Positions 4,601 through 56,436 of a stretch of DNA of 64,000 nucleotides are shown here, piece after piece; within the stretch, counting starts at the first letter, position 1, and every line of letters begins with the position of its first letter. The position numbers and the translations under genes were made by a program. The stretch comes from an uncultured virus (IMG/VR IMGVR_UViG_3300012259_000001) (lineage: Duplodnaviria; Heunggongvirae; Uroviricota; Caudoviricetes). The DNA lies in the IMG/VR virus record IMGVR_UViG_3300012259_000001, positions 1 to 64,000 of that record, one strand, 5' to 3'. Under the pieces are notes generated by a model. That model was not told the DNA's origin. It did no database searches and saw nothing but the letters and a program-made list of their open reading frames with translations.

Positions 4601-7600
4601 CATCGTTCTCTTCCATCTTACCGGTGGGGGAGAATTTCTTCGTTGCTGCATCATGGGACAGGTACACCGGCGTGAACCGGGTATCACACCAACGAGCGAA
4701 TCGTTGGAAGCCATCTTGGTCATCTTCCTTGATATTGAACATCTCACGGATTTTCTCAACCTCCAACATTTGGAAGTCGATCAACGGCTCTCCTCCTCGC
4801 GACTTGACTGCAGGTTTCACCAAGTCTTCGAACGCAAGAAGTTTATCGATGTTGTCATGGTCATCGATGGCAAAGCCGTATTGCGCCATACGCAATTTCA
4901 GCAAACCACCTCGTTGATTACGCTTGTGGCGTTTATACAACCACCATGCTCCAAAGCCCACAGCAGCCACGGCTGCAGCACCCAAGAGAACTGGTGCACT
5001 CAAAGCACCCATCACCGCCGAACCTACCGCCGCTGCACCACTGGCCAAACCGCCCAACATGGCACCGCCACCCATCAGGGCAAAGCGACCCGCATGCAAA
5101 CCAACTCGACCAACCGTCTTAGCAGCCGTCCAAGCACCGCGTGCAAAACGACCGAGCTTACCACCACGACCTGGTCGACGACGACCGTCAGGCAGATCAG
5201 CACCGCTACTCAATACATCAGCCGCCCCTTTGAGCATTGCTTTCTGAGCGAGGATCTCGCCCAACTTACTGATACCGTTGGAGAGCGTTGCAGGGATGCC
5301 TGCTAACAATCCAACCGCAGTAGTCAACAACCCCATCAGACCGCTTTTCTTTTCCTTCTTCTCTTTCGGTTCTGGCTTGTCCTTTTTCTTCGCATCTCGC
5401 GCTGCTTGACGCTTTGCTTGAATTGCTTCCCAAGAACCGTCACGCGTACCGTCGCCGTTGAGATCGCCTTTGACTCGCTTGGGCTTAAGGTCACGTACCC
5501 CATCCCGAATTTCTTCGAGCAACAGGATTTGGTATTCGCCGATCACTTCCATCATCTCGGACGAACCGCCACCCTTACCGAACTTACTACTGATACCTTT
5601 AAAGCCTCCTTTGAGGAAGCCGCCGATACCCTTAGCCATGTTCAGTGCACCACGACCCAAACGCTTAGCGCCGTCGATAGCACGACCACCCCACTTCTTA
5701 GCAGCATCTACTGCTGTACCCAAGAAGCCACGTGCCAACTCGAGTTTCTCACCCGCCGAATCCATCATGCCTTTGGCCAATAGCTCCAACGACACCACCA
5801 CGTTGCCCTCAAGGTCGTATACCGTTCCTTTAATGTCAGTCCACTTGTTGATCGGACTGCCATCGGCATTGCGGTAACCACCGGCTTGCATCACCGAAGC
5901 AAGGATTACTGGGTCTTCACGACCAGGGATGTAGATGTCGCGCGGTTTGTTAAACGCATCACGAACAGACTTACCAAAGCTCTTAAGTCCTTGATACACA
6001 CCCTTGATCAGATCACCCGGCTTCTTAGCCAAGGATTTAGCACCGAGCCAAGCATTGCCAACACGTTTAAAGAAGCTTTCCTTCCACGGTTTACCATGGT
6101 TGGTCCACAGCCCTTTGGCAAGGTCTTCAGCAGACAGAACGATTTCTCCAGCCTTGTCTTTAACAGGACCTTTGATATCCTCCCACTTCTCGATCAGCTC
6201 GCCGGTCTTGGCATCATAGTACTCCTTAGCATCTAACTTTGCCTTAGTCAGTTTAGCTGCAAACTCACCTCGGACATAAAGCTCCTTGATGTCGTTGAAC
6301 TTACCGGTGGCTTTATTCCAAACAGCCTTCAATCCTTCTTTGGCTTTGTTAGCGGCCCACATCGGTGACTTGATGGTGTTCATCACACCCGTCTTAGCCA
6401 TGCCGAACAGGTTACCCGCCCCTTTAACCAACCGATTGTCTTTAAGTCCTTTAAAGCGGTTTTTCAACCCTTTGAACCCACGACCCATGCGATCCTTCAT
6501 GGACTGGAACATACCTGTCCCGTCTACCGAGAAGACCATCATCTGGCCTGACTGCATGTATTCGTAGATTCCGGCCAACAGCGCAATCTGTTCGGCCTGT
6601 TGTGCATTCTCGGTGTGAGACTTGGTGATTTCAGCCACCAGGCGATCGTTTCCTTCTTTAACAGCTTGGATCAGACGATCAAACTCATCACCACAAACAC
6701 ACTCTTCCACCTTCGCCTTTATTTCGGCCGCAGACTTTGGAGTAGTGCTCCGATTACTGCCAGAGGAATTGAAACCACTGCCAGAGTTCCCTCCACCAGG
6801 GCCAACAGGACCAAACAGATTAGAAGCGATACGAGGATCGCCATCTGCTTGATCAAATTTATCACCAAAGCCTCCTTGGACGAGCATCTCGGTGATACGG
6901 TCGAAGTTAACCTTGCGGTCTTCATTCTCCCCTGTCACTAAGCCCGCCCGACGCATATGTTCCAACGCACCCGCTTGCATCGACAACGCTTTAACGGCAT
7001 CGGCCGGGTTGTTGAGGTAATCGCGGATCTGGTGGAACTTTTTAGATTGCGCATTCTGCTTTAGGATGTCATCCTTAGAATCAAGGAAGAGGTCGGACAA
7101 GGCGATGCGGTCTTCATCAGACAGCCCTTCTTCATCCCACCCGTCAACGTCATAAAACTTCTTGGCATCATAGTGACCTGTTAACCGTGAAGCTTCGGAG
7201 ATCATCCGTCGTTTCAATGCTTTGCGGGCCTCGGGAGACAGTTTGCTATCGTCTCCTCCGGTCAGGTCGTTGATCAAAGCATCGGTACTTTCGTGTGTTT
7301 TCTCGAAGTTGTCTTTAGAGAACAAAGACCCTACGAGGTTCTTGGTGATTGATCCGGTGTCACGGAATGAACCGTCACGCAGATCGTAATCAATCCGAGC
7401 GATGGTTGGATCACCCGTACGGATGATAGCCAACTCATGGTGAATACGAGACAGGAAGCCTGGAATGATGTCTGTCAAAGACTTACGTGCTGCGTGACTG
7501 AATGCCACCGCATCGTTCGCCTTGGTCAGGTCAGTTTCCTTTTTACTGTCAAGTAGCGGATCGTCCAACTCATTAGGAGCTTGTTCTTTCAGCCACCGAA

Positions 7601-18081: not shown

Positions 18082-18843
18082 ATGTCTACAGAACGGGTAG
18101 TCTATGGCTGTACCGCCCTAGTCGGCACCAATAAGACGGGTAAGCTTTCGGCTGACAGCGATGGCTACTACGAACTGGTGTTGGGTGGGCTGGACTGCTA
18201 CAACAGCGGTGGAGCTTTCTACCCGCTGTCTACGGCGCGTTCATTGTTCGAAGCGTCTTCGACTCTGATGCGTCGGATTGAAACTGGGGCTTGTCGAGGT
18301 GAATACGGTCACCCGAAGAAAGACCCCAACCAGAACATGTCGAGCTTCCTCCAACGAGTGTCGACCATCTACGAAGACAACGTCTGTTGTCACTTCAAAG
18401 ATGTGCGTCTGGAACAGAACGCGGTCAAAGACAAAGACGGCAATCGCGTGGTTGCTGTTGTGGGTCGCGTTAAACCCAGTGGTCCTAAAGGCGAATTCCT
18501 TCGTGCCTCTTTGGAGAGCAAGGATGAAAACGTCTGCTTCTCGGTTCGCAGTCTGACTGACGATCGGGTTGAAGGGGGTCGTCTGGTTAAGCACATCCGT
18601 TCCATCATCACGTGGGACTACGTGAATGAGCCGGGCATCGCTGTCGCCAAGAAGTGGCACTCGCCTTCTCTGGAATCGTTTGACGATGCGGTTTTCAGTC
18701 GTCAGATGGTGGAGAGTCTGGGTGAAGCCAAGGGTGTAGGTATGGAGTCGGTTAACGAGATCTGCAAAACCATCTTCGTCGACTTCGGTTGGAAGAAGAA
18801 GGTCGGTTCCGATCTGGTACTGCCCCCAAGCGCTCGCTGGTAA
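18082..18843 (+). CDS. Prohead maturation protease (phiKZ gp175 / T4 gp21-like)
   Basis: GEYGHP (His), FSVRS (Ser), WDYVNEPG motifs; candidate self-cleavage sites SLE and GME near the C-terminus. Confidence 0.9.
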   Translation: MSTERVVYGCTALVGTNKTGKLSADSDGYYELVLGGLDCYNSGGAFYPLSTARSLFEASSTLMRRIETGACRGEYGHPKKDPNQNMSSFLQRVSTIYEDNVCCHFKDVRLEQNAVKDKDGNRVVAVVGRVKPSGPKGEFLRASLESKDENVCFSVRSLTDDRVEGGRLVKHIRSIITWDYVNEPGIAVAKKWHSPSLESFDDAVFSRQMVESLGEAKGVGMESVNEICKTIFVDFGWKKKVGSDLVLPPSARW

Positions 18844-18943
18844 ATATGCAAAGCTGCTGGTTCGCCAGCAGCTTTGTTTATGTCCGTATTCAAAGTTTTT
18901 AAAGGTCTGTACTATTCACGGGCAAATACTTAAGGAATGACTC

Positions 18944-19351
18944 ATGTACGTCGTCATCATTAAAGGCAACCCCAAGTTTATCAATACCCCTGTGGCGCGT
19001 CAGTATTATAAAGCCATTGAGAAGTTCCTCTATGGGCTTGGGGTTAAGCGCGTCGACTTTGATCCGGGAGCCGACTATACCTGTCCACCCAAAGCCGATT
19101 TCTACGTTGCTCATTCTCGCGGGGTGGGGCGTGTAGACTTGTGTAAACACTTAGGTGAACATAACGCGTTGAAGTTTGGTTCACTCGACGGCATCATCCA
19201 TCCCACTGATGCTGAGTGGCAGAAGGTCACACCCGCAGGAACCGGAACGCCACCTAAGGAACACTTCCTCTTTACGCCGGAGCAACAGCAGGCCGTTCGG
19301 GATATGTATGAAAGGGTGCGTGCGTCACAACCCAAAAGTTCTGAATGGTGA
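18944..19351 (+). CDS. Small alpha/beta-hydrolase-like protein with C-terminal PKSSEW tag
   Basis: VAHSRG nucleophile-elbow-like motif, downstream His; AAGGA RBS. Confidence 0.5.
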   Translation: MYVVIIKGNPKFINTPVARQYYKAIEKFLYGLGVKRVDFDPGADYTCPPKADFYVAHSRGVGRVDLCKHLGEHNALKFGSLDGIIHPTDAEWQKVTPAGTGTPPKEHFLFTPEQQQAVRDMYERVRASQPKSSEW

Positions 19352-19357
19352 TTTGTA

Positions 19358-19963
19358 ATGAAACTTTATCATGGGTCAGAAAAACTATTTACCGTATTAA
19401 AGCCCACGGGTGTTAATATGGGTAATCGACTTCAGAAAGCACACTGGGCTATTTATTTCTGGGACGACTACGAGAAAGCCAGGAAATGGGCTATCTTCCA
19501 ATACCTAAGACGGACACTCAAACAACGGTTGGTCTACAACGTCATTAATAATGGCGTGTTGGTTACAAAAGAACAATACAAAGAACTCCTCAGTGCGGCA
19601 GACAATGGGAAGTGTTATGTTTACGAGGCAGACATACCCAGGAATAAAGTAGGTTTCGGTAGCTCACCGGAAATCGATGAGTACACCGTTCGACAAGACG
19701 TTACACCACAAAAGGTGTATGAACAGATAGTTGATGAAAAAGCGATATATCACATCTGTACTATCGCAACACAAAAAGAAATCAACGACTACATCAAAGA
19801 CCTAGAATCCGGTAAGTTTAGTAAAAACAGGGGTTTCCTACTCTATTTGTTACTAGATCCTAAAAAAGACCAAGAGAGACACGGCTACAACAAACGGATG
19901 AAGGAAGGTACTCTTAAGCCTGGGGATGAGTTAGGTAAGGAACCTCCCAGTTCAAATTGGTGA
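19358..19963 (+). CDS. ADP-ribosyltransferase-fold protein with C-terminal PPSSNW tag
   Basis: N-terminal KLYHGS, IYF..D...A..WA, YVYE, DEY pattern typical of ART-like folds; AT-rich. Confidence 0.5.
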   Translation: MKLYHGSEKLFTVLKPTGVNMGNRLQKAHWAIYFWDDYEKARKWAIFQYLRRTLKQRLVYNVINNGVLVTKEQYKELLSAADNGKCYVYEADIPRNKVGFGSSPEIDEYTVRQDVTPQKVYEQIVDEKAIYHICTIATQKEINDYIKDLESGKFSKNRGFLLYLLLDPKKDQERHGYNKRMKEGTLKPGDELGKEPPSSNW

Positions 19964-19969
19964 TTTTTA

Positions 19970-20686
19970 ATGAATGATAAAGAATTGATGGAGAAGTACC
20001 TCTCCAACTTTAACAACGGAGTCGCTGAGAACGTCACGATCGTCTCCCCCAGTGAACTGGGTCAGCGGTGGCTTTACCACATCTCACTCGACCCTAAGAT
20101 CAAGCAGTTCGTTCCTTCGCTGACGCGTCGCACTGCAAATAAAGAAGACCGTACGGTTCCACGTATTTCGACCGCCCCAACGATCATTGGTTGCATCTTG
20201 GGGTACCAGAACGACATCAACGAGTTCCTCGACAACGATGTAGATGGTGGTTGGAAAGGTGGGTGGTACATCTACGGGTTTGAGAACGAGATCAGTCTTC
20301 TACCCAAGAAGAAGCTTCTTGTCGATGTACGCATCAGCGACGAGCACTGGTTGGTACCCTATACAGCTAAGAAGTGGAGCTACCCCGCCAAGGTAATCGG
20401 TAAGTTCTTCTACCGCACTGTCAGCACTCAGAACGTTCTTAAAGGCAACAGCATCTGGGAAGTGGAGGTGGTGTTCGAAGTCAATCGAGGCTGTGAAGTT
20501 CGTGCTTTCAAAGGACTGACCCTGACGGAAGGTTATTGGATCATGACCTTTACTCGGTCGATGAAAGAGTGGGATACCGAAGACGCCCAGAATGTCCGAC
20601 AGCTCAGCAGTTCGGAGTACAAAGGCATCAAGGTTCTGCACGCCGACATGCTTTCCTACCAAGAGCCGCCGAGTGCCCATTGGTAA
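19970..20686 (+). CDS. ART-like phage protein with C-terminal PPSAHW tag
   Basis: LYHIS...FVP...EDRTVPRISTA...DEHW pattern. Confidence 0.45.
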   Translation: MNDKELMEKYLSNFNNGVAENVTIVSPSELGQRWLYHISLDPKIKQFVPSLTRRTANKEDRTVPRISTAPTIIGCILGYQNDINEFLDNDVDGGWKGGWYIYGFENEISLLPKKKLLVDVRISDEHWLVPYTAKKWSYPAKVIGKFFYRTVSTQNVLKGNSIWEVEVVFEVNRGCEVRAFKGLTLTEGYWIMTFTRSMKEWDTEDAQNVRQLSSSEYKGIKVLHADMLSYQEPPSAHW

Positions 20687-20739
20687 CCTGTACCCGCCTA
20701 AGGGCGGGTATATGCCGTCATCGAAAATATATTTAAACC

Positions 20740-20804: not shown

Positions 20805-21572
20805 ATGACCACAGTAGTTTATCTGGGTGATCGCATCATTGCTGACACCCGTGCATCGATTCGACAAAAGGGCTTCGTGGGGGTCAAAGGCGACACCGAT
20901 CTCGTAAACGATCGAATGACCAAGTTAGAAACTTTTGGTCCAGGTTTCTTCTGGGACAGTTGTCGACAAATACAACTCATGGGGGCAGCAGGCACTACGT
21001 CAGGCATGAAAGCCTTTGGTGAGTTCATGCGGCGACTACAGTGTCCTTTAGAACAATTTCTGGACTCCTTCTCGGGTAGCGAGGAGATGATCTACAAAAT
21101 CATTGGTTTGCCCACACCCTCCACATTTCTACTGTGTCTGGAAACCGGCGACTGTGTGAGACTGTTCATTAACGAACGAATCTTTCACAAGAGTCCTGTC
21201 AACCGGAAAGTGAAAGCCTGCGGGAGTGGGAGCTTCTATTTCGATGCCAGTAAGAACATCTTTCAAACCGACCCTGTCCTGCTCTTTCGGATGGCCTCAA
21301 CAGTTGACCCTAGCTCTAGCGATGGGTCCTACATTGAAGCTGTCTATGACGAGGATAAACGAGAGTGGGTGTTGGATCGGGAGATCAAGCACTTCGATAC
21401 TCCCGTTGACCCAGAGGTGTTGATCAATAGCCTACACCCCAACATTCGTGCTATGTTCAAAGGTACCGTCAGTGAGGTTTCAGAAATCCCTGATGACAAA
21501 CTGCCTATTGATCCGCCCGAACAGGTACCGATTAAAATCCCTACCAAGAAGGGAGCTAAATGCAAAACCTAA
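20805..21572 (+). CDS. Ntn-hydrolase (HslV/proteasome-beta-like) protein
   Basis: Starts MTTV (Thr nucleophile after Met removal), IIADTR, GAAG and GSGS motifs. Confidence 0.6.
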   Translation: MTTVVYLGDRIIADTRASIRQKGFVGVKGDTDLVNDRMTKLETFGPGFFWDSCRQIQLMGAAGTTSGMKAFGEFMRRLQCPLEQFLDSFSGSEEMIYKIIGLPTPSTFLLCLETGDCVRLFINERIFHKSPVNRKVKACGSGSFYFDASKNIFQTDPVLLFRMASTVDPSSSDGSYIEAVYDEDKREWVLDREIKHFDTPVDPEVLINSLHPNIRAMFKGTVSEVSEIPDDKLPIDPPEQVPIKIPTKKGAKCKT

Positions 21573-47310: not shown

Positions 47311-48024
47311 ATGAAAGTTAAAGCTAACGGTAAGTGGGGGATTGGGCTTACCCGCTTTAAACGACAAGGAGCCTGGCTTAAGCCGCGGTCGACATGGCAA
47401 AAGTACAATGAGAAGTGGTTGAAGGTGGGTGTTAACTACTATCGTGAGAACTACAAACTTCGTCACTATGCCACAGGGATGAGCGTAGCCCAGTTGTATG
47501 ACCACAGCACCACGTTAGGGCTTAATGCGTTTGAACGTAAGTTGAATGGTCGCGATTGTGTTGACTTTATCAACGCTGGCTGGATCAAGATGACTGATCT
47601 TCAGCTACCGGCACAATGGACAATCAACCTGTGGTATCACGCACGAAGTCTTGACGGTTATCAACACTTCTTTACCTACTCAGGTAATCAGGCAAACTTT
47701 ACCTTTAAGTTGAGTCCGACCTACCCTGGGCGCCCGTACATTCACTTTAACGGCACTAGCTATCGAGCACCAGACGCCATCGGAGCAACAGGTTGGCACA
47801 TGTTGACATTGTCCTATGACGGTAGCAACTATCGCATTTACATCAATGGTGTCTTGTCGTTGCTTCAGGCTTCCAATTACAGACCGCCTCTGGGTAATTA
47901 CCTCTGTGGGTCGCTTAATGAGGAAGTGGGGGGTGAGAAAAACGTTGGGTTGGTGTCCGATTTCGTGATCTACTCAAAGCTCCTGAGTCAAGCCGAAGTG
48001 ACAGAACTGTACACTAACTGGTAA
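47311..48024 (+). CDS. Trp-repeat family protein 4 with LamG/concanavalin A-like domain
   Basis: MKVKANGKW...KRQGAW...KYNEKW; WTINLWY, WHMLTLSYDG...IYING, SDFVIYSKLLSQAEV. Confidence 0.8.
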   Translation: MKVKANGKWGIGLTRFKRQGAWLKPRSTWQKYNEKWLKVGVNYYRENYKLRHYATGMSVAQLYDHSTTLGLNAFERKLNGRDCVDFINAGWIKMTDLQLPAQWTINLWYHARSLDGYQHFFTYSGNQANFTFKLSPTYPGRPYIHFNGTSYRAPDAIGATGWHMLTLSYDGSNYRIYINGVLSLLQASNYRPPLGNYLCGSLNEEVGGEKNVGLVSDFVIYSKLLSQAEVTELYTNW

Positions 48025-48046: not shown

Positions 48047-48757
48047 ATGCGTATTAAACAAGGGGGGTCTTGGCGGTGGTCACACCTTCGAGTGAAGTGG
48101 GGCGGGCTATGGAAAACGCCTCAGCGGATACTGACAAAGGTCAACGGGGTCTGGCAAGGTATCCAGCACTTACTCTCGGTAATGAATGGGCTTACCCGTT
48201 GGTGGTTGTCGGAAAGCAAAACCGTTGATCCGATCACCGGAACTTCACTGACCGTTTCATCAGGGGCAAGCTTTGCGGCTGTGTTGGGTCGGATGTCTCT
48301 GCGCGTTTATGGGGGTCGGTATGCATTGGTTCCTAGCGTAAGCCTAAGTGGGAACTGGACCATTAATCTGTGGTATTACCCATTGGGGTATGCGACCTAT
48401 AGTCATTTGCTAACACATGTAAGTGATCAGGTCAACTTCGCACTCAAGTTGACCGTTGGGGATGGTCGACCTTATCTCCATTACAAAGGTGTTAGTTACG
48501 GACTGTCAAGTGCTGGACTGTCTCTGAACCAATGGTCAATGGTTACGGTTACTCATGAAGCAGGTGTCTTGAAGATCTATTTGAATAAGGTTTTGCAAAC
48601 CACCGCTAATGTCACTGTGTCTCAAGCGGCTGTGAACATGTACGTGGGGCGTGGTCATAACGAGGAATACTCCAATGGCTATCAACGTGACCTTTTGTTC
48701 TACAACCGGGCGTTAAGTCAGGCTGAGATCGACACCATTTATCAAGAGCAAGCGTAA
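48047..48757 (+). CDS. Trp-repeat family protein 5 with LamG/concanavalin A-like domain
   Basis: MRIKQGGSW...KWGGLW...KVNGVW; WTINLWY, WSMVTVT...IYLN, FYNRALSQAEI. Confidence 0.8.
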   Translation: MRIKQGGSWRWSHLRVKWGGLWKTPQRILTKVNGVWQGIQHLLSVMNGLTRWWLSESKTVDPITGTSLTVSSGASFAAVLGRMSLRVYGGRYALVPSVSLSGNWTINLWYYPLGYATYSHLLTHVSDQVNFALKLTVGDGRPYLHYKGVSYGLSSAGLSLNQWSMVTVTHEAGVLKIYLNKVLQTTANVTVSQAAVNMYVGRGHNEEYSNGYQRDLLFYNRALSQAEIDTIYQEQA

Positions 48758-55463: not shown

Positions 55464-55550
55464 AGTTAAGGTCCTACGTTAGTTTCCCCTTCTATAAAAT
55501 TGCGGGTAAGTCATAGCCTTATTGGAAAATAATTCAGGTGTATACTATCT

Positions 55551-55805
55551 GTGGGAAGTAATACCCAGCCTTCAATCGATTGGAGCACTATCATGTTCAA
55601 ATGGATTAACCCTGCACATTGGGGAAAGCGCGCAGCACATGCAGTCAAACGTTGGGAGAACCGTCGTAAGGCGGAGCAGTTCTTTCAACAGGCCGACCTG
55701 ATGGTTATTGAAGCTGACAGTCATCGCGAAGGTCCGCTTAAAGATGCCTGTATGAAAAAAGCCCTCGAGTTGGCTAACAAGGCCTTTGCCCTCTGCGATA
55801 AATAA
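55551..55805 (+). CDS. Hypothetical protein
   Basis: Likely start at ATG 55593 (MFKWIN) after GGAG. Confidence 0.65.
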   Translation: MGSNTQPSIDWSTIMFKWINPAHWGKRAAHAVKRWENRRKAEQFFQQADLMVIEADSHREGPLKDACMKKALELANKAFALCDK

Positions 55806-55836
55806 GCCACCCCCAGCAATTCTAAGGAGAATGAAG

Positions 55837-56436
55837 ATGTCGAACAAAGATGAACTCGATGACATGCGGCGCACCATCATCAGTGACTTCTCTCAAGCGT
55901 GGTCATTGAACGACGCCGCGCATCGGGTGGAGCATTTTCGAATGGTGGAGCTGACAGGCTACCACATCAATGAAACCCTGCGCTTGGGTTTTAACCCCAA
56001 ACACATTCTGTTGGTTGCTTATTTCCACGACTTGTTTTCGTGGAGTCGTCACAACCACCACCTGATGTCCGGTGAGTGGATCATGACTACCGATTACCCA
56101 CTGATCGCTCAACTGGACCCTGAAGAGCGTTCTTTGGTGGCCTCAGGTTGTCGTGAACACCGAGCGTCTAACCAGCAGCCGTTTACCAACCAGTTTGCTG
56201 AATTGATGTCCTCAGCAGATCGGGGGTTCCCGGAGAAGAATCTTAAAGGCATGCTCCAACGCGCCATTGAGTATCGACTCCATCGTGGGGATAATCACGA
56301 AGCCGCCCGTAAGGGGGCATTGACCCACGTGAAAGAGAAGTTTGGTAGTCAAGGCTATGCTCGCTATCCAAACCTGTACACACAGGCGTTTAAACAGGAG
56401 CTTCAAGAACAACGCGATCTCGTGGATTTGTTGTAA
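55837..56436 (+). CDS. HD-domain phosphohydrolase
   Basis: AHRVEH...YFHDL...HH...EHR...SAD; start chosen by AAGGAG spacing. Confidence 0.85.
   Translation: MSNKDELDDMRRTIISDFSQAWSLNDAAHRVEHFRMVELTGYHINETLRLGFNPKHILLVAYFHDLFSWSRHNHHLMSGEWIMTTDYPLIAQLDPEERSLVASGCREHRASNQQPFTNQFAELMSSADRGFPEKNLKGMLQRAIEYRLHRGDNHEAARKGALTHVKEKFGSQGYARYPNLYTQAFKQELQEQRDLVDLL

Follow-up and report, generated by a model that had tools for sequence, protein, structure and literature searches.

Jumbo phages pack roughly 50 selected proteins into their heads, and two described systems are close to the locus reported here. In phage T4, a short N-terminal peptide, the capsid-targeting sequence (CTS), is common to IPI, IPII, IPIII and Alt and lies beside a Glu-specific site of the prohead protease (PMC7411985, PMC5694885). 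In SPN3US, the mutant 245(am66) makes a prohead protease, gp245, that lacks the last 26 of its 64 propeptide residues; this protein is active in vitro, where it self-cleaves and cuts gp53, but is not found in proheads, and a packaging signal was proposed within the last 26 residues (PMC7411985, section 3.5). A packaging signal at the protease C-terminus was likewise inferred in PMC5694885. Here we analyse positions 18,082 to 20,686 of a 64,000-nucleotide stretch of DNA from an uncultured virus (IMG/VR record IMGVR_UViG_3300012259_000001, positions 1 to 64,000; henceforth referred to as the window), where a protease of the gp245 type and three genes behind it end in a common tryptophan-ended peptide. 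We put the probability at about 0.6 that this tail is a prohead-import signal of the S80 protease, that a small number of accessory late proteins have adopted it, and that it is sometimes clipped off.

A C-terminal peptide shared by four otherwise unlike proteins

The array opens with a 253-amino-acid (aa) prohead (head-maturation) protease of the phiKZ gp175 / SPN3US gp245 type, peptidase S80 (18082..18843; this and all other features of the array are on the + strand), which ends in LPPSARW-stop (18820..18843). It is followed by genes for a 135-aa protein (18944..19351, tail QPKSSEW at 19328-19351), a 201-aa protein (19358..19963, tail EPPSSNW at 19940-19963, directly after G-K-E) and a 238-aa protein (19970..20686, tail EPPSAHW at 20663-20686). 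The initial annotation had described these four consecutive open reading frames (ORFs) with the same ends and coordinates and had noticed no other ORF ending in this way, and both statements hold for the whole 128,176-nt contig (G000) as well: 25 of its 673 ORFs of at least 50 aa end in W, and the pattern P-x-S-x-x-W fits the four of the array alone. The same was found in a 221-kb relative (G001, ~80% complete) whose protease is identical to that of the window. Here, the pattern occurs on 4 of 229 genes of at least 80 aa, again the same four and no others, as against 0.007 expected from composition; the corresponding Poisson probability of ~1e-10 overstates the case because the motif was defined after it had been seen.

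We considered whether the common end could be a remnant of common descent. When the last 10 residues were removed, no mutual similarity was detected among the four proteins (best E 0.06), and alignment of the 201-aa and 238-aa families with hhalign gave a probability of 3%. The four thus have no recognisable homology outside their tails, in keeping with their earlier description as otherwise non-homologous. A pure DNA repeat as the origin of the shared tail was ruled out by its codons, which drift across relatives while the peptide stays constant, serine switching from AGY to TCN or back; in a single genome, the same peptide is written with TCN in the protease gene and with AGC in the 238-aa gene. 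Hence, the tail is conserved at the level of the protein and not of the DNA.

The tail closes the propeptide of the prohead protease

The protease matches the profiles of its family (PF20034, E 4e-77, 258.9 bits against a curated cut-off of 23.4; phrog_3014, E 3e-80). Five residues, H77, S154, D179, E198 and E222, are the same in all 22 proteases aligned, and the first three of these are the probable His/Ser/Asp catalytic triad of the S80 family. The two glutamates belong to the S-L-E (residues 196-198; 18667..18675) and G-M-E (220-222; 18739..18747) sites which had been pointed out upstream of the tail and which are indeed present. S-L-E matches the position of AQE-203 in SPN3US and is the likely autocleavage site that would open the C-terminal propeptide, and G-M-E is a second likely cleavage site within it. 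In its catalytic domain, its S/A-x-E autocleavage site and its propeptide of 55-64 residues the protein resembles SPN3US gp245 and phiKZ gp175; what sets the window apart is that the W-ended last 6-7 residues are common to unrelated proteins, whereas SPN3US has no tailed passenger.

Among the protease loci collected (the best 80 of 303, hence biased towards the query) 79 of 80 carry W within the last 4 residues, and 84 of 88 distinct protease ends have the W-tail. The 53 distinct tails have P at position -5 in 44 cases and, at position -3, either S (23) or Y, F or W (25), the terminal W being the sole nearly invariant residue. The expression P[PK]S[AS].W that had been proposed for searching the family thus turned out to be lineage-specific in its exact form, although the tail itself recurs in relatives with the family form P-x-[S/aromatic]-x-x-W. 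Diverged second protease-like genes occur in G003 (114781-115590), Xoo-sp14 (55487-55942) and FLC9 (217044-217625); they are tail-less, as is described for SPN3US gp117.

Passengers carry the tail as a detachable module

Among distinct ends, the W-tail was present on 71 of 82 members of the 238-aa family, 14 of 49 of the 135-aa family and 9 of 61 of the 201-aa family, and close relatives without it terminate directly after the domain. Since tail-less relatives exist in all three families, and since another genome with an identical protease lacks two of the three genes, the tail can be regarded as a module that passengers gain or lose. In phiKZ, the cleavage motifs of the protease are S/A/G-x-E and LSxE (PMC10449902). 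A site of the former type lies within 15 residues upstream of the tail in all 9 tailed ends of the 201-aa family (background 8%) and in 28 of 71 tailed 238-aa ends (background 14%), often 3-12 residues ahead of it; within the window, the 201-aa protein with its G-K-E is alone in having such a site adjoining the tail.

The 238-aa gene adjoins the protease gene in most lineages, whether tailed or tail-less, and tailed genes for GNATs, a nucleotidyltransferase, SNF2-type helicases and ART-like proteins cluster near protease or 238-aa genes. In L427, a nucleotidyltransferase gene (4768-5166) directly follows the protease gene, and the last six residues of the two proteins are identical. PCH45 likewise has a tailed gene beside that of its protease, gp81. 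Unlinked homologues, 78 kb from the protease gene in FLC9 and 57 kb in Noxifer, are tailed like their own protease.

To see how far the tail extends beyond these genes, a scoring matrix built from the 53 protease tails only was applied to 4087 ORF ends of 15 whole or nearly whole genomes; the automatic choice of genes missed some true ones, for example those of G003. In G001, the four genes of the window rank 1-4 of 324. The protease, a helicase and the 238-aa homologue rank 1-3 of 607 in FLC9 and 1-3 of 448 in G004, whereas in the complete relative G002 tails are found on the protease and the 238-aa protein only. Helicase gp203 comes first of 359 ORF ends in phiKZ and its counterpart first of 313 in Goslar. 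A score of at least 9.5 was reached by 17 of the 4087 ends, namely those of 6 proteases, 5 238-aa homologues, 3 helicases, the 135-aa and the 201-aa protein and one unrelated 971-aa protein, so that 16 of the 17 fall in five families (protease, helicase and the three of the window).

The gp203-type helicases (phiKZ 210656-212767, Goslar 142905-145034, FLC9 104158-106206, G004 73343-75478 and RP12 169200-171488) are informative in that, in most of 9 orthologues, the C-terminus mirrors the protease propeptide, with x-x-E sites, a linker of ~20-25 residues and a tail-like end. The resemblance of the array to the SF2 helicase phiKZ gp203 / RAY gp131 thus lies in cleavage-type sites, linker and tail on a processed head protein. 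The helicase is, however, missing from the lineage of the window, with no orthologue in G001, G002 or G003.

The initial annotation had gone further and presented the tail as a candidate capsid-cargo sorting system. As a general system this was ruled out by the scan, since each of the 15 genomes has only 0-3 tailed passengers as against 53 head proteins in SPN3US; in that phage no tailed passenger was found, and the protease alone among the 53 is W-ended. The proposed tail route would be a minor one, next to entry by N-terminal propeptides or by binding to a partner.

Tail carriers among head proteins

Evidence that tail carriers reach the head exists for the protease and for the helicases. 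In phiKZ, gp203 undergoes processing and is a packaged head protein (10.1101/2025.11.23.690004; RefSeq note), and RAY gp131 localises like capsids (10.1101/2023.02.24.529968), the side of its fusion to green fluorescent protein not being stated in the part of that paper available. A gp203 carrying a C-terminal 3xFLAG was constructed and examined by blot, yet it is not listed among the validated injected proteins in the available part of PMC10449902, which is at most a hint. The mass spectrometry (MS) table for RAY (PMC6690015), as far as available, lacks gp169, gp170 and gp131, but it describes a crude lysate and is uninformative on virions.

A proposed role in prohead import and its alternatives

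We propose that a C-terminal peptide of 6-7 residues, of the form P-x-S or aromatic-x-x-W, would bind a part of the assembling prohead core. The starting point, shown here from the sequences, is a conserved, detachable module with which the protease propeptide ends. In SPN3US, the last 26 residues are required for entry into the prohead and not for activity (PMC7411985), and within this stretch the tail would be the active element. By gaining it, the 135-, 201- and 238-aa proteins of the window would have come to share a route into the head, as may gp203-type helicases, GNATs, the nucleotidyltransferase and ART-like proteins elsewhere. The protease would then clip the tail off at an S/A/G-x-E wherever one precedes it, by analogy with T4 gp21 acting on the N-terminal CTS; in the window, this step would suit the 201-aa protein (G-K-E) and, not clearly, the 135-aa and 238-aa proteins. 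As a last and hypothetical step, the passengers would be ejected into the host and act as enzymes. The parallel with the T4 CTS lies in a short peptide that is common to unrelated proteins and, in part of the carriers here, next to a putative Glu cleavage site. The differences are that the tail is C-terminal in every carrier whereas that of T4 is N-terminal, that the two have no likeness in sequence, and that the tail is also on the protease, with 0-3 passengers per genome; its sufficiency is only a possibility here.

The reading of the tail as a C-terminal prohead-targeting peptide, already suggested in the initial annotation, is thus favoured by its being a protein-level module, by its place at the end of a propeptide with published import genetics, by its recurrence on unrelated proteins, the head helicase gp203 among them, and by its being detachable. 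It would narrow the candidate signal from the 26-residue stretch located in SPN3US to the final 6-7 residues of the protease, and add natural passengers that reuse them. As to novelty, the earlier statement that no description of such a tag was known stands in part. In our literature search, which covered few subscription papers, neither a name for the motif nor a description of its sharing came up, and in the available part of a 2026 review (PMC13282480) neither 'propeptide' nor 'C-terminal' occurs; the C-terminal packaging signal of the protease as such was, however, already published (PMC7411985, PMC5694885). What would be new is the motif of 6-7 residues and its sharing by unrelated proteins. 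It may become possible to predict packaged accessory enzymes from their sequence, and C-terminal tags could block the packaging of such proteins. A stronger version, in which Chimalliviridae possess a second head-loading code, the W-ended heptapeptide defined by the protease being sufficient to load any protein and having been bolted onto host-modifying enzymes of the ART-like, GNAT, nucleotidyltransferase and helicase kinds for delivery with the DNA, is possible but in our view doubtful; if true, it would provide a portable tag of 7-10 residues for loading jumbo-phage heads, of use in phage engineering.

Several observations weigh against an import role. SPN3US gp246, an orthologue of the 238-aa protein (E 1e-14), is a head protein by MS (supplement rows of PMC10052503) and is tail-less; the tail is therefore dispensable for packaging of the 238-aa family in at least this phage, and is not needed everywhere in the family. 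Similarly, a tail-less 238-aa homologue lies beside a W-tailed protease in 7 of 33 genomes, and a GNAT-like gene inserted between the protease and 238-aa genes (L007 6764-7156) is tail-less. The virion data sets examined contained no tailed protein from any of the three window families, and 201phi2-1 gp429, which is homologous to the 135-aa protein, carries only the annotation 'hypothetical'. The proteases of phiKZ and 201phi2-1 lack the final W, and that of SPN3US retains little besides W and ranks 63 of 322 by the matrix, so that the SPN3US genetics bear only loosely on the motif. The helicase tail is weak in RAY (rank 89 of 406) and in 201phi2-1 (187 of 529) and is absent in LucasX (377 of 461), and tailed 135-aa ends show no excess of upstream cleavage sites (3 of 14, background 15%).

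Co-variation of the tails was also considered, in the 33 genomes with both the protease and the 238-aa gene, where the W-tail is present on all proteases and on 26 partners. The raw agreement in tail class, S or aromatic, was 24 of 26 and 29 of 31, with classes defined after seeing the data. Tails from the same genome were more similar than shuffled pairs at 70% and 60% clustering (p 0.002; 19 and 13 clusters), and p was ~0.1 at 50% (5 clusters). Once kinship was taken into account, on a tree that left out six near-duplicate rows, 1 independent pair was supported, and in a test on 21 hand-picked representatives the own partner was closer than that of the nearest relative by 12 to 8 (p 0.50). 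Because of this single independent contrast and the 12-to-8 outcome, co-evolution of the tail with a receptor may have occurred, being compatible with the data and not established by them.

Other explanations would account for part of the same evidence. The tail could bind the protease itself, for oligomerisation or substrate docking, with passengers recruited for clipping or carried in and the true prohead signal elsewhere in the propeptide. The frequent position of the tail 3-12 residues after an S/A/G-x-E site is what such docking would predict, as is the adjacency of the 238-aa and protease genes with or without a tail, yet the tail-less am66 protease remains able to cleave both itself and gp53 in vitro while missing proheads (PMC7411985), and most substrates of the protease are tail-less; we think this unlikely. 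Quite unlikely, too, is another protein-level job, either membrane contact through the terminal Trp at the site of assembly or a mark of stability or degradation for a host or phage protease. Proheads do assemble on the inner membrane (PMC7411985), and a poorly ordered tail in which W is the sole nearly invariant residue would suit such a job, but P at -5 in 44 of 53 tails, together with the two alternatives at position -3, points to a binding site of defined shape, and the top-scoring carriers are head proteins where this is known.

It is improbable that the passenger peptide is a functionless by-product of DNA events, in which cassettes recombine at the 3' end of the protease gene and inherit a copy of it. 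The 135-aa and 201-aa genes are each followed by a near-identical W-stop-ATG junction of 15 nt, both genes were recently inserted or deleted, and tailed genes lie near the protease or 238-aa gene, all of which points that way; the TCN and AGC codons for one peptide in one genome, and the keeping of tails on 71 of 82 diverged ends of the 238-aa family and on genes at a distance of 57-78 kb, point the other. This explanation is largely refuted for the 238-aa family and could explain the origin of the tail but not its persistence. Least probable of all is a partial coincidence, whereby the protease and the 238-aa family keep their own C-termini for folding and the likeness of the helicase and 135-aa ends is a loose post hoc match. 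Co-variation that is not significant with kinship controlled would agree with it, as would the RRPGVR-type 135-aa tails with their loose resemblance to the protease end, but tail-less orthologues exist in all three families and 16 of the 17 high-scoring ends of 4087 fall in five families.

Predicted nature of the passenger proteins

The initial annotation had named the three accessory proteins as enzymes, one hydrolase-like and two ART-like. What we obtained are weak fold or profile hints, and 'enzymes' is at most suggested by them. Fold searches of the 238-aa and 135-aa models with Foldseek and VIA gave no clear match. The 238-aa protein (phrog_5043, E 2e-45; SPN3US gp246 / RAY gp169 family), with invariant residues H37, S39 and E125, was modelled at a pLDDT of 87 (tail 50-61); its best Foldseek E was 0.07 and its best VIA Z 5.2 (root-mean-square deviation 3.8, 121 residues aligned), with many ART-family rows at Z 4-5, inside the noise range, and with an Arr-ms cluster in the Atlas at 0.93 only at rank 30. 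For the 135-aa protein (phrog_30942, E 2e-37), a small domain of the alpha/beta type is predicted (pLDDT 90, tail 57), in which A-H-S-R-G is conserved. Its VIA matches (Z 7-8.3) are spread over hydrolases, binding proteins and receiver domains, its best Foldseek match is PurE (E 0.002), and the Atlas was uninformative. The 201-aa protein has a weakly ART-like start, with a match to ART-PolyVal (E 0.004, 18.4 bits) below the cut-off of 31.2; it gave no sequence match in the PDB and, by tblastn, none in cultured phages. The tails of the models are predicted to be poorly ordered.

All three domains also occur in other settings. The 135-aa domain is fused to or adjoins a GNAT domain in L241, L248 and L250, where the tail ends the fusion, and its phiKZ-like homologues (L044 3989-4441, which is 201phi2-1 gp429, and P0047-P0073) have another conserved tail, of the RQSASRRPGVR type, that loosely resembles the W-less ends of phiKZ-type proteases. 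The 201-aa domain is also part of numerous distant proteins that have no W-tail and are frequently long and multi-domain (P0085-P0226), several with N-terminal x-x-E-S leaders. HNH-like segments are fused to 238-aa or 201-aa homologues in L200, L292, P0022 and P0084, with PF13392 on P0022.

Gene order and genome context

The protease gene is the last of a conserved virion block and is followed by a terminator-like hairpin (18848..18877, -23.5 kcal/mol, z -7.4) and by TATG (18879-18882), the phiKZ late-promoter motif (PMC4666361) and here a candidate promoter; both elements are kept in L001, L002 and L010. The 135-, 201- and 238-aa genes come next, and a second hairpin (20689..20712, -18.3 kcal/mol, z -3.7) ends the array. 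A sigma-70 promoter and terminator scan performed at chance level and missed both hairpins. In L010, which has an identical protease, the protease gene is followed straight by the 238-aa gene, as it is in L001 and L002; the 135-aa gene is absent from all three and the 201-aa gene from L010. Because these loci skip to the 238-aa gene and because the 201-aa gene has a GC content of 41%, as against 49-59% in its neighbours, the 135-aa and 201-aa genes are, judged by sequence, recently gained or lost cassettes. The junction of W codon, stop, spacer and ATG at 19346..19360 is nearly repeated at 19958-19972 (14 of 15 bases equal) and may be a microhomology trace of cassette insertion.

Further along the contig, outside the window, a chimallin-like gene of 715 aa (G000 68674-70821, +) matches a 631-aa protein of Goslar (E 1e-45), which in turn matches the nuclear shell protein gp54 of phiKZ (E 4e-18). 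Since this gene, recognised by a two-step match, and an S80 prohead protease are in one genome, that genome is by sequence that of a Chimalliviridae-type (nucleus-forming) jumbo phage. Directly after the array lies a tail-less HslV-family peptidase-like gene (window 20805-21572; phrog_1040, E 4e-6), and tandem paralogous genes of 237 and 236 aa (E 1e-24) lie at window positions 47311-48024 and 48047-48757, the first being W-ended but without the motif.

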